Below are positions 2,810-20,368 of a DNA stretch of 64,000 bases, piece by piece. The stretch is from Pseudomonadales bacterium (GTDB taxonomy: Bacteria; Pseudomonadota; Gammaproteobacteria; Pseudomonadales; GM7GCV1), in the NCBI GenBank assembly GCA_965221105.1, contig OZ244871.1, forward strand, positions 114,453 to 178,452, in the 5' to 3' direction. Each line of letters begins with the position of its first letter. Position 1 is the first letter of the stretch. The notes under the pieces are model-generated. The model did not search any database. It was not told the origin of the DNA and saw only the letters and a list, made by a program, of their open reading frames with translations. A program made the translations under genes and the position numbers.

Positions 2810-2877
2810 TGGGGTCGTCTCCAAGTACAATTGGATTAAGTATTCTATGAGACTGGCCGCCAAAAGAGAAGTGTGAA

Positions 2878-2897
2878 TTTCAATGTGAGACACTACT
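2878..2897 (-). repeat. Degenerate copy of the cassette terminal inverted repeat
   Basis: TTTCAATGTGAGACACTACT is 17/20 identical to the reverse complement of the left IR at 17832. Confidence 0.65.
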
Positions 2898-16458: not shown

Positions 16459-17679
16459 CTAACCACTCCTGCCACGGGTTGCGGCGATACGCAATCGCAG
16501 GGCGTTGAGCTTTATAAAGCCTTCAGCGTCCGCCTGGTTGAACGCACCCTCATCTTCATCAAAGGTTGCTATCTGCTCATCAAACAGTGTGTCTTCGGAC
16601 TCACGGCCGACGACTATCACGTTACCCTTGTACAGCTTCAGGCGGACCCTGCCATTGACGGTCGACTGGGATTCGTCAATTGCAGATTGCAGAATACGTC
16701 GCTCCGGCGACCACCAGTAGCCGTTGTACACCAACCTGGCATAGCGTGGCATCAGGTCGTCCTTGAGATGCGCCACCTCTCGGTCCAGAGTGAGGGACTC
16801 GATGGCCCGATGCGCTTTGAGCAGAATGGTCCCACCGGGTGTCTCGTAACAACCCCGGGACTTCATGCCCACATAGCGATTCTCTACGAGGTCCAGACGG
16901 CCAATGCCATTGTCGCCACCCAGCCTGTTCAACCGCTCCAGCAAGGTTGCTGCAGAAAGGGACTCGCCATCGATACTGACGGGGTTGCCGCCTTCGAAGG
17001 CTATCTCAGTATAAGCTGGCTGGTCCGGAGCAGCTTCCGGAGATACACTCCAACGCCACATATCTTCTTTCGGTTCCCACCATGGGTCTTCGAGGTTGCC
17101 ACCTTCGTAGGAAATATGAAGCAGATTGGCGTCCATGGAGTATGGCGATTTTCTATCCGCACCGGCAAAGTCAACCGGAATACTGTGGGTATCGCAGTAT
17201 TCCATGAGCTTTTCGCGGGAATTCAGATCCCACTCGCGCCAGGGTGCTATGACCTGAATGCCGGGTTTGAGGGCATAGGCCCCCAGCTCAAAGCGCACCT
17301 GATCGTTCCCTTTGCCTGTGGCTCCATGAGAAATGGCGTCTGCACCAGTCTGGTCGGCAATTTCCACCAGGCGACGTGCAATCAGTGGACGTGCGATGGA
17401 CGTACCGAGAAGGTACTCACCTTCGTACACTGCATTTGCGCGAAACATTGGAAAGACATAGTTCGTTACGTAGTCTTCACGCAGGTCTTCTATATAGATT
17501 TCCTTAACGCCGAGGGCCTGAGCCTTGGCTCGCGCCAGCTCTACCTCCTCACCCTGCCCGATATCCGCAGTAAAGGTCACAACCTCTGCCTGATGATGAT
17601 CCTGCAACCAGCGCACGATAACAGACGTATCCAGCCCACCGGAATAGGCTAAAACGACTTTGTTCACTGTCATGGACAA
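16459..17679 (-). CDS. argG: Argininosuccinate synthase
   Basis: [34 protein letters not shown]. Confidence 0.98.
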
Positions 17680-17917
17680 TCACTCTGGAACAGGTTGTAC
17701 GGGGCGCACATTCTACACCATGGCCGGACACGCGTCGCCAGGAATATGACCGGCAGTTACTGGACGGAGCAATCTCATTTCAACTGATCAGGTACCGGCC
17801 CCAGCCAGAAATACAACCACTCCGGATGCGCGGTAGTGTCTCAGTTTGAAAATAATCCCATTCTGCCGGTTGAAACGGGTATACTGAGCGTAACATCGAT
17901 CTGCTTCGGAGAGAAAG

Positions 17918-18587
17918 ATGAAACAGTACCGTTACCCCCCCCCCCCCGCATAAGTTAATATATCCCCTGCTCCTGCTGCTGGCAGGGCTTGCGGCACCGG
18001 CCGCGGCGCAGACGACCGTCACCAGCAGCGGGCGAGACGGCCCCACCGCTTGTCTGGCTCAACAGGAGATCACTCCTGATAATGTCCCCATCACGAGTTT
18101 GTCTACGACCAGTGTGACCTTCACGAGACCGGCCGTAAATTGGAACCAATACGTCGCACGGCTCGGCGATGCGCCAGCACCTGCAAATGCCACTATGTCT
18201 GCCAATGTTTTCAATGCCCGTACAGGAGTGAATGTAAACGATTTTACTGGACCTATATCCCCTTCCACAATACAAATAAGCCGAAACCAATCCGTCTCTG
18301 GCCTGGCTGCGAAGACAAACTATTACATCGAAATTTCTGTGGATGATTCAGGACCTATCCCGAAACAGGTGTTTGCCAGACACTGCTTCATGACCGGCGG
18401 CTCCTACACCATATCGGCCAACCCCATCGCTTCAGGCCCAACGCAGGGGTCAACCGGGTGCTTCACGATCAGCCCCCTCACCCAGCAGGATGTGCGCAAC
18501 TGCTGGTGCGGGCGCAAGACTACCCTGCCCCTGTTCAGCTCCACCCAGGACAACACCGATTTCCTGAACAGGTGGGGGTGCCGATAG
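17918..18587 (+). CDS. Secreted Cys-rich FN3-like protein (about 222 aa), out of frame at a C13 tract
   Basis: GGAG RBS, ATG 17918; C12 would give MKQYRYPPPPHKLIYPLLLLLAGLAAPAAA-QTT.. in frame with ORF 18099-18587; 6 Cys; SGLAAKTNYYIEISV is FN3-like. Confidence 0.75.
17935..17947 (+). repeat. C13 homopolymer (slipped-strand contingency tract)
   Basis: 13 consecutive C starting at codon 6; the current length gives TAA at 17951. Confidence 0.9.
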
Positions 18588-18652
18588 CGGCCCGTGCCGG
18601 ACACAGGCAGGAGGCAGCCAGACCGTCCCTGTCGTTGCAGACCGCCGGAGCC

Positions 18653-18685
18653 GCCGTCGCCCGTCTTCAGAAGGTGGGCGACGGC
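18653..18685 (+). terminator. GC-rich hairpin downstream of the cassette cargo gene
   Basis: GCCGTCGCCC..GGGCGACGGC 10-bp stem; no clear U-tract. Confidence 0.45.
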
Positions 18686-19306
18686 AGGCGTATTCCTGGA
18701 TGTGCCGAAACCTCATCGACACAAACCTGCACGGAGATTTTCAAACTGGGCCACTACCGGATGCGCTGGCATCAGAACTTCGCGCATGTATCCAGTGTGC
18801 AGAACAGCCGGGCTGAAATTCCCCCTAATTCCCAAGATTGCAGATTCTCAAGAACACATGCTGGGGCGAGTAGTGAGCGCATAGCTTCGAATTAGGGTAC
18901 AATAAGACCCTGTTGGGAAAATCGGATTTGGGCTGTCGTCACCTGGAGCGGTACTTCCCGCTCGGGCTGTGCTTTCCAGCCAGAAGGATGAGGTCCTCTC
19001 GTTACATTCCGCTGCAGTGCGCGGCCCGAAGCTGCTCATATGCCGGTAGGTTTAATTGTAACTTTTTCTGAGGGCCGCCCCTGATGTCGTAAACGACATA
19101 GTCGCCAGGGGCGAGGCTGTGTCAAGCACTGCAATCTGTTATCCGTAGTGCACTACTTTAGAGTAACCCGTACCTCTAAAGCTCTAAACTTCGGCAGTTC
19201 ATTAAGCCATGTACCATCAGGCTACCGGGTAATTGGCAGGCCTCTTCTATTTCTATCGTACAATGAGAGCTGTTTCGCTGCCATTCGGCCTCCATCAAGG
19301 ACTCCC

Positions 19307-20368
19307 ATGAGTGCCAATACTCTCAGCATAACCCGGCCTGACGACTGGCATCTTCACCTGCGAGACGGTGCTGCACTCCAGCTGACCGTGCCCCACGCTG
19401 CCCGCTACAACGGCCGTGCTATTGTCATGCCGAATCTGCAACCACCCCTGGTCACCGTAGATCTGGCGGCGAGCTACCGCACAAGAATTCTGGCGGCCCG
19501 GCCCCAAGGCTCCGCATTTGAACCCCTGATGACTTTGTACCTCACAGACAACACAGCCGCGAGTGAGATTCTCGCGGCCAGTGCCCATCCAGCGGTGACC
19601 GCCTGCAAGCTCTATCCAGCGGGAGCAACAACCAACTCAGACTCAGGTGTCACCGACATCACCAACATTCACGGGACACTTGACGTCATGCAGGACGAGG
19701 GCATACCTCTGCTGATCCACGGCGAGGTCACTGACCCGAATGTCGATGTGTATGACCGTGAGAAGGTCTTTATCGACCAACACCTTGCCCCCCTGCTCAA
19801 GGATTTCCCGGAGCTCAGGGTTGTGCTTGAGCATATCACCACCGCTGAAGCTGCGCAGTTTGTCGAGAGTGGGCCCGCCAATCTGGCAGCCACGATCACA
19901 GTCCATCATCTGCTCTACGAGCGTAACCACATGCTCGCAAGTCGGATTCAACCCCACTTGTACTGCCTGCCGATTCTGAAGCGCAGACAGCATCAGGAGG
20001 CGCTTCTGCGAGTGGCGACGGGGGGCAACCCGCGCTTTTTCCTGGGCAGCGATTCCGCACCACACAGCATTGGGGAGAAGGAGAGCAGCTGCGGCTGCGC
20101 TGGCTGCTATACCGCGCATGCGTCCCTGGAGCTTTATGCGGAAGTTTTCGAGGCCGCTGGCGCTTTGGATACACTTGAGGCATTTGCAAGTCATCGGGGT
20201 CCGGATTTCTATGGGCTGCCGCGAAATAGCGACCGGATTGTTCTGGAAAGAAAATCATGGACAATTCCCGACAACTATACATATGGCGACTCTCACCTGA
20301 AGCCCCTCCGCTCAGGTGAACAGATTCAATGGCGCCTTTCCTCTTCAGGAACCAAGCCACATGAGTGA
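19307..20368 (+). CDS. pyrC: Dihydroorotase
   Basis: [30 protein letters not shown]; AAGGA RBS before ATG 19307. Confidence 0.97.

Follow-up and report, generated by a model that had tools for sequence, protein, structure and literature searches.

A transposase-free cassette with IS1-type ends and a candidate switchable exported-protein gene in a Pseudomonadales genome

Results

A 927-bp element between argG and pyrC

The stretch of DNA analysed here, which we call the window, comprises 64,000 nucleotides (G000:C1:114453-178452) of the genome of a Pseudomonadales bacterium, a single contig of 2.77 Mb. A 927-bp element (17832–18758; coordinates are those of the window unless marked as genome coordinates) sits between argG (16459–17679, minus strand; NCBIfam 626.9 bits) and pyrC (19307–20368, plus strand; NCBIfam 438.5 bits). 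It is bounded by two 22-nt inverted repeats, GGTAGTGTCTCAGTTTGAAAAT on the left (IRL; 17832–17853, plus strand) and GGTAGTGGCCCAGTTTGAAAAT on the right (IRR; 18737–18758, minus strand), and the reverse complement of IRR is identical to IRL at 20 of 22 positions. GGTAGTG is present at both ends, and GGATGCGC adjoins both repeats as a perfect 8/8 target duplication (17824–17831, direct-repeat family D11, and 18759–18766). Simple arithmetic puts the probability of an exact 8-mer match at fixed positions at 1 in 65,536. A degenerate pattern of the two repeat arms matched the window twice, with 0.00 matches expected from 100 shuffles. A search of the element with the partner transposase described below (tblastn) found nothing. 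A first-pass annotation, made from the letters alone, had read the segment as a mobile insertion cassette (MIC), that is, a derivative of an insertion sequence (IS) with a passenger gene and without a transposase. Its description of the repeats, the perfect duplication and the flanking genes agrees with our repeat listing, pattern search and NCBIfam matches, and with two repeats, a target duplication and no transposase inside, the MIC reading is supported.

Inside IRL, a leader (17854–17917, plus strand) includes the −10-like hexamer TATACT (17880–17885), which may mark a promoter, and the ribosome-binding site GGAGAG (17908–17913). From the ATG that follows, five more codons lead into 13 C residues (C13; 17935–17947), the presumed slippage switch. 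The frame from this ATG stops at TAA (17951–17953) after the short product MKQYRYPPPPA (17918–17953, plus strand), which is the off reading. The only long frame in the element (17922–18587, plus strand, 221 codons) is a different one. Joining the ATG to it needs C12 or C15 (one C fewer or two more), and the window copy therefore has one nucleotide too many. The long frame contains no ATG, GTG or TTG before residue 60, and hence an exported product needs the upstream ATG and readthrough of the run. A homopolymer of at least ~8 nt in the 5ʹ coding region that sets the reading frame is characteristic of contingency genes, and the C13 run, six codons after ATG, is such a homopolymer. Judged from its sequence, the window gene is probably a phase-variable gene caught off at C13.

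Downstream of the gene there is a GC-rich hairpin (18653–18685, plus strand) that was found both in the inverted-repeat listing and by folding (−35.9 kcal/mol for 18640–18705, z −3.2). There is no T-run 3ʹ of it, and it is a possible terminator. At E up to 1, a search with Rfam found nothing. The −10-like hexamer, the ribosome-binding site and the downstream hairpin proposed in the first-pass annotation are thus all present, but the passenger is not one intact open reading frame (ORF), because the frame from the ATG stops after C13 and the long frame is in another frame.

The passenger encodes a predicted exported protein

Directly 3ʹ of the run, the long frame would be read as a Sec signal peptide (HKLIYPLLLLLAGLAAPAAA; 17949–18008, plus strand) with predicted cleavage before QTTV, followed by a mature protein of 192 amino acids and a TAG stop (18009–18587, plus strand). 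The block AAP..AQTTVTS is conserved in 30 homologues. Five Cys residues are invariant, and a sixth nearly so, in an alignment of 30 sequences; a Cys-rich helical tail contains C155, C180, C194, C196 and C220. An AlphaFold2 model built with 30 homologues (pLDDT 84.5, pTM 0.76) has a beta sandwich at residues 30–165, followed by the helical tail.

The sandwich resembles FN3 domains over residues 53–163 of the long-frame protein P0001 (window 18078–18410). The best Foldseek match had an E-value of 7.7e-05, VIA-align gave Z 9.2 and an rmsd of 2.9 over 89 residues for model residues 53–163, and the ten best structural rows were FN3-type structures or, in two cases, the RsgI4 sensor domain. Pfam fn3 (PF00041) did not match at E up to 1, and the predicted FN3 likeness is at the level of fold only. 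The long frame matched no Pfam family (two sub-cut-off matches, E 0.08–0.1) and no NCBIfam family. A profile search of 1.84 billion representatives found 156 proteins at E ≤ 0.001, of which 69 were at ≤ 1e-10 and 23 at ≤ 1e-30; some of these matches are giant multi-repeat proteins that align with the sandwich part only. A protein atlas returned an FN3 theme at scores under 0.9, which we take as a lead only.

The cassette has many relatives in the same genome

Allowing up to three mismatches, the genome has 36 matches to the repeat pattern, 18 per strand, compared with 0 for the reversed-pattern control. Ten pairs of plus- and minus-strand repeats delimit elements of 369–1,379 bp, mostly 900–947 bp. 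Target duplications are perfect in three of the ten (the window copy and those with CAAATTTT and ACCCATTG), match at 7/8 positions in three more, and are absent from the rest. We compared nine of these elements, leaving out the one of 369 bp. Read in the direction of the gene, eight share a common plan: repeat, leader, ribosome-binding site and ATG, a run of C8–C20, signal peptide, Cys-containing exported protein, GC hairpin and second repeat. The ninth (genome 431784, 1,379 bp) has extra DNA between its end and its gene. Seven paired copies group with the window copy in one FN3-like superfamily, and two further subfamilies of paralogues are homologous to the window protein family (hhalign 98.7% and 98.1%). 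In 40 relatives of this genome the repeat matched only 0–3 times each (1, 0 and 0 times in three genomes of the same genus).

The window cassette has no near-identical sister in this genome; its nearest copy is 78–91% identical, over parts only. The leader (element bases 1–118) is 77–84% identical to the leaders of five other copies that form one subfamily, and the cargo, from element base 104, is 78–91% identical to a copy bearing a different leader (comparison partners at genome 2128666–2129449, 2216857, 1866505 and 1278601). The two alignments overlap solely within the C run, at bases 104–116. Going by this mosaic of leader and cargo, the C run may also serve as a recombination junction.

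A second GGTAGTG-type end (AGTAGTGTCTCACATTGAAATT, 4 mismatches) lies in the window at about 2876–2897, minus strand. The region 2793–2897 (genome 117245–117349, minus strand) includes a leader, an ATG, C9 and a short frame without a signal peptide. Its product resembles frames of ~50–57 amino acids of the form NSGNSAGN..RKR.W.PPTVKT that are found 3ʹ of C11–C31 runs, at genome 456091, 659222, 749199, 750964, 1189031 and 2643718. At genome 280271–281594, two cassettes (L004 and L015) stand head to tail with exactly 8 bp (GAATATCG) between them; this 8-mer agrees with the left flank of the first cassette at 7/8 positions, an arrangement that looks like insertion of one cassette at the other's edge.

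Cassettes of this family occur in two classes of bacteria

A word-seeded search found 90 homologues of the cargo, all unnamed or hypothetical and none with a Pfam domain. Relatives are encoded at 157 loci located by a scan of species-representative genomes. We kept 79, and our locus set is the 75 of these fetched at a length of at least 5 kb, four shorter ones having been dropped. Both repeats (at up to 5 mismatches, 831–1,461 bp apart) are present at 26 of the 75 loci, nine of which have a perfect 8-bp duplication and six a 7/8 match. According to their record titles, the hosts are Alphaproteobacteria (Paracoccaceae, Aestuariivita, Rhodospirillaceae) and Gammaproteobacteria (Arenicellales, Candidatus Poriferihabitans, Pseudomonadales, Candidatus Azotimanducus, Thiotrichales).

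A quick maximum-likelihood tree was computed from 64 cargo proteins: the window protein and one from each of the 63 loci whose open frame is 170 amino acids or longer. Twelve loci with shorter frames were dropped. Class labels change 19 times on this tree, at least 13 of the changes being forced by starred branches, compared with a mean of 21.3 for shuffled labels. Host class is therefore distributed almost at random. The window protein itself is sister (98) to an alphaproteobacterial copy with which it shares 74% identity. Cargo genes mix freely between Alpha- and Gammaproteobacteria of sponge-associated lineages, and the window cassette is one member of a large cross-class family, not a one-off.

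C runs vary in length and frame

The genome contains 68 runs of at least eight C or G residues (52 of at least nine), the longest being 31. By eye, ~45 of the 68 lie a few codons 3ʹ of an ATG, and most of these are followed by a signal peptide, a minority by short peptide frames. The run-bearing genes have at least five distinct types of leader (for example MFSLKVQCDV-Cn-ARLTALAA), and not all are bounded by GGTAGTG repeats. Together they are a set of candidate switchable exported-protein genes, of which, by our own count, ~7 of ~31 genes with signal peptides are in frame.

A run of C7–C23 is found at the same place in 59 of the 75 loci from other genomes. Where an ATG lies upstream of the run (58 loci), the gene is in frame at 10, has one nucleotide too many at 30 and two too many at 18. 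The commonest length is C9 (22 loci, 15 of them one too many). Across all copies, lengths range from 7 to 31, with in-frame and out-of-frame states both present, and database homologues often begin M..PPPP..KL. In this skew of frame states, copies from one genome do not count as independent.

For the window locus itself we used Logan contigs from four sequencing runs, X1, X3, X5 and X6, the last two from another study. Contigs of X1 and X3 cover the C13 run without a difference. A 129-letter contig of X5 spans 17878–17997 with one difference and nine extra letters. If the nine letters lie in the run, the X5 strain probably has C22.

An IS1-type transposase shares the cassette ends

In five other cassette-rich genomes the repeat occurs 33–66 times each at up to two mismatches (controls 0). 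Among long repeat pairs sought in these genomes, two proved to be autonomous elements. The first, L129 (G045:C1:2049935-2052436), is 2,502 bp long. It has the repeat of the cassette, identical at its two ends, a perfect 8-bp duplication (GAAAAATA) and a 298-amino-acid ORF. The encoded transposase scores 36.9 bits against Pfam PF03400 (DDE_Tnp_IS1; cut-off 24.1), and among the NCBIfam models its E-value is 3.5e-22 for IS1 and 7.5e-06 for the next family. The second, L140 (in G041), is 1,528 bp long, with the same repeats, a perfect 8-bp duplication (GAAAATGG) and a 305-amino-acid ORF that extends into the right repeat, which contains its final codons and stop. Its protein is 54% identical to that of L129, to which the Pfam and NCBIfam scores belong. 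Proteins 55–62% identical, on plasmids of cultured bacteria, are named “IS1 family transposase” by NCBI; this annotation was read from three of the four best rows (Acidiphilium, Hoeflea and Mesorhizobium) among 20 matched records. The transposase gene on the Acidiphilium plasmid ends in GGTAATGTCTCAGTTTGAAATT, the same repeat, and the Hoeflea record has GGTAGTGTCTCAGTTTGAATTT ~880 bp downstream of the gene.

Elements of the IS1 family have GGnnnTG termini and 8–9-bp duplications in ISfinder. The matching ends, the transposase of L129 that passes the PF03400 cut-off, and the NCBI naming together uphold the IS1 assignment made in the first-pass annotation. The cognate transposase that it proposed to look for was found in other genomes, as L129 and L140, and only as a remnant in this one. 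The cassette shares with elements of the L129/L140 type the terminal 20–24 bp only. Four of the five cassette-rich genomes have one intact copy of the transposase and the fifth has only a fragment.

Besides its transposase, L129 has passengers, namely a small upstream ORF and a split N6/N4 DNA methylase with a fused HNH nuclease domain (PF01555 74.1 bits, PF01844 49.7 bits). The same arrangement is present in decayed form in another genome, as L131. The window genome is itself rich in IS, with 160 repeated intervals of at least 500 bp. We considered its other IS types as partners by clustering self-BLAST repeats, and none has the cassette ends. One IS of ~1.3 kb is present in 21 copies (for example genome 242359–243668), with ends (GGGAATTATATAC) unrelated to those of the cassette.

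The insertion is older than a strain split

Across both junctions (17300–17997 and 18548–19300), contigs of X1 and X3 are identical to the window; these contigs may derive from the source sample. In X5 and X6 the flanks are 1.3–4% diverged from the window. Contigs from the argG side reach 15 and 30 letters into the left repeat, and another begins 40 letters within the right repeat and extends to the pyrC side; under a 31-letter bridging rule, only the right junction is bridged in these two runs. In both, position 18764 is T, which makes the right copy of the duplication a 7/8 match. The element thus occupies the same site in a strain diverged by 1–4%, and therefore the insertion predates the split between the strains. 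The proposal that it is recent, which had been drawn from the perfect duplication, is not supported, given this occupancy and the lack of a near-identical sister copy: recency does not follow from an intact 8-mer.

The annotation had also suggested looking for an empty site in related genomes and reads, and none was found in five relatives and four runs, no search of collections with a joined empty-site probe having been made. No joint skipping 17832–18766 was seen in X1, X3, X5 or X6. The five relatives align with the window in coding parts only, at 65–75% identity. Their argG–pyrC spacers measure 211 bp in G001, ~165 bp (extrapolated) in G005 and 6.3 kb in G003, and none can be aligned to the window spacer. 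Because the spacers are short in G001 and G005, which are other species of the genus and the family, the locus is not always occupied. With these shorter spacers and the 36 repeats in the genome, we found neither a segment that is always present in the orthologous locus nor repeats confined to it, the two findings that the annotation had named as counting against mobility. Without the cassette, the argG–pyrC spacer of the window would still be ~690 bp, compared with ~165–211 bp in the two relatives; the extra DNA (18767–19306) occurs once in the genome.

Discussion

We consider it likely that the segment between argG and pyrC is an MIC derived from an IS of the IS1 family, that its cargo is a switchable exported-protein gene, and that it is one of a multi-copy mobile family. 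Under the mechanism that we propose, the cassette would retain just its two 22-bp ends, as recognition sites for an IS1-type DDE transposase. Supplied in trans, such an enzyme would have placed it in the argG–pyrC spacer and generated the 8-bp duplication. There is no intact enzyme in the genome, and the cassette is therefore probably stranded here. The cargo would be a self-contained unit of leader, ribosome-binding site, ATG, prolines encoded by the C run, Sec signal peptide and an exported protein of ~190 amino acids that combines an FN3-like sandwich with a disulfide-rich tail. Slipped-strand mispairing would change the length of the C run and so turn the gene on or off, C13 being an off state. 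As a family, the cassettes would move between sponge-associated Alpha- and Gammaproteobacteria.

Several observations weigh against this interpretation. No transposition has been observed. A model search found no IS1 (PF03400) transposase in this genome, where the enzyme is represented by a C-terminal remnant (residues 230–298, 54% identity, E 1e-19; genome 1881382–1881588, abutting a lone repeat). The L129 transposase scores 79.3 bits with the NCBIfam model transpos_IS1, below the cut-off of 100, although IS1 is still the best IS family. The partner transposase is encoded by a single ORF without internal stops, unlike classical two-frame IS1 elements (insA/insB with a −1 frameshift). ISfinder also contains single-ORF members of IS1, and a single ORF excludes the classical subgroup only. 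No empty site was found; the spacers of relatives at ~75% identity are unalignable, and no skipping joint was seen in the four runs. Neither a simple sigma-70 scan of the plus strand of the leader nor a stem-plus-T-run rule applied to the plus strand found a promoter or a terminator, respectively. With regard to switching, the probable C22 is out of frame in the same way as C13, the sequencing runs were available as contigs only, so that switching within a population is not seen, and homopolymer lengths in long-read assemblies can be miscalled. Finally, the proportion of loci in frame (10/58) is below one third and loci with one nucleotide too many are over-represented, which also fits recoding.

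Recoding would make the C run a site at which the ribosome shifts +1 on CCC-C, or RNA polymerase slips, giving constitutive low expression of out-of-frame copies. It is known that tRNA-Pro slips +1 on CCC-N. In favour of recoding, exactly one extra nucleotide is the most frequent state and C9 the commonest run; the window copy is also one too many, and the probable C22 of X5 keeps the frame of C13. Nonetheless, we regard recoding as unlikely. Run lengths of 7–31 are spread over the three frame classes, in this genome both out-of-frame classes are of similar size, and the 10 in-frame loci are joined by many in-frame database homologues. Moreover, shared ancestry may lie behind the skew, given that the paralogues of one genome are not independent. 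It is far less probable still that the cassette is a dead relic, its passenger a pseudogene broken by decay or assembly error and its ends irrelevant. Such a relic would account for the out-of-frame gene, the missing intact transposase, the age of an insertion that occupies the same site in a diverged strain, and the fact that no RNA run was listed as holding the segment. However, the long frame is open for 221 codons and keeps all residues that are invariant in the 30-sequence alignment, in which the window copy is included, and both repeats and the duplication are intact. In addition, the break falls exactly in a run that is carried family-wide at that spot, and C13 is the same in X1 and X3, even if these contigs possibly come from the source sample.

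A different origin of the ends hardly needs to be entertained. In the ISfinder family table, GG termini and 8-bp duplications are common to IS6, ISL3, IS1595 and IS256, and the partner transposase has weak sub-threshold matches to the models of all four. Against this, no Pfam model other than IS1 exceeds its cut-off, IS1 leads the NCBIfam matches by a wide margin, NCBI assigns the plasmid proteins at 55–62% identity to the IS1 family, and models of IS6 and ISL3 transposases have no match in this genome.

How does the cassette compare with known mobile elements? IS231 belongs to the IS4 family of IS. The element fits the definition of an MIC quoted in the part of PMC3913671 available to us, and excerpts of that paper and of PMC3281130 describe MIC231 of Bacillus cereus as moved in trans by the transposase of IS231A. 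As far as these excerpts go, MIC231 and the qnrD and qnrS2 mic elements resemble the window cassette in their terminal inverted repeats, their target duplication and their single passenger, which brings its own expression signals, and in lacking a transposase. In contrast, their partners are IS231 or unknown, they occur in single or few copies, and they carry an enzyme or resistance gene, whereas the window cassette has an IS1-type partner, dozens of copies per genome, a diversifying exported-protein cargo and a poly-C run. With the IS1 family the cassette shares GGnnnTG ends, 8–9-bp duplications and a partner transposase that matches PF03400; it differs in having no transposase of its own, and its partner is a single ORF of 298–305 amino acids in elements of 1.5–2.5 kb, with passengers in L129. 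Correia-type MITEs (miniature transposable elements with inverted repeats) are likewise non-autonomous and multi-copy, with IS-type ends, and outnumber their autonomous partner. MITEs are short and as a rule non-coding, whereas the cassettes are ~0.9 kb long and each has a complete gene. A definition of MITEs is given in the excerpt of PMC3281130.

The C run invites comparison with the contingency genes of host-adapted bacteria. In Neisseria, pilC has a poly-G run in its signal-peptide region. Homopolymer tracts of contingency genes in Campylobacter and Bordetella are described in excerpts of PMC1891110, PMC8355987 and PMC5084427. As in the cassette, to judge from those excerpts, the reading frame of an exported or surface protein is set by a G or C run within its 5ʹ coding region, a genome has numerous loci of this kind, and most are off in any given sequence. 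Contingency genes are, however, fixed chromosomal loci, whereas the cassette unites the putative switch, start codon and predicted signal peptide in a transposable unit that is shared across classes. In a limited literature search, none of the best matches tied MICs to phase variation. Nothing relevant to sponge symbionts with homopolymer switching appeared among the best matches in a limited collection, in which a query on contingency loci returned nothing; the available part of a preprint on srp ribosomally synthesized and post-translationally modified peptides (10.1101/2023.06.09.544420) mentions homopolymers as a read filter only.

What might such cassettes do for their hosts? The cargo may have a role at the surface or facing the host. 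We also propose, tentatively and as a picture that may well prove too broad, that sponge bacteria of different classes share a pool of IS1-derived mobile contingency genes, each of which would supply a ready-made exported FN3-like protein that switches stochastically. These would be moved by one master transposase per genome and exchanged between co-resident symbionts, leaders and cargoes might be reshuffled at the C run, and the community would thereby vary what it displays to the host or to phages.

MICs have so far been described as rare, single carriers of enzyme or resistance genes, and phase-variable homopolymer genes as fixed loci of pathogens. The cassette family described here brings a putative switch, a start codon, a predicted export signal and a gene into one transposable shell, which reaches dozens of copies per genome and is common to sponge-associated Alpha- and Gammaproteobacteria. 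The 22-bp ends and the IS1-type transposase give experimenters a defined pair that can be tested. If switching is real, uncultured symbionts would gain a transferable means to vary their exported proteins.

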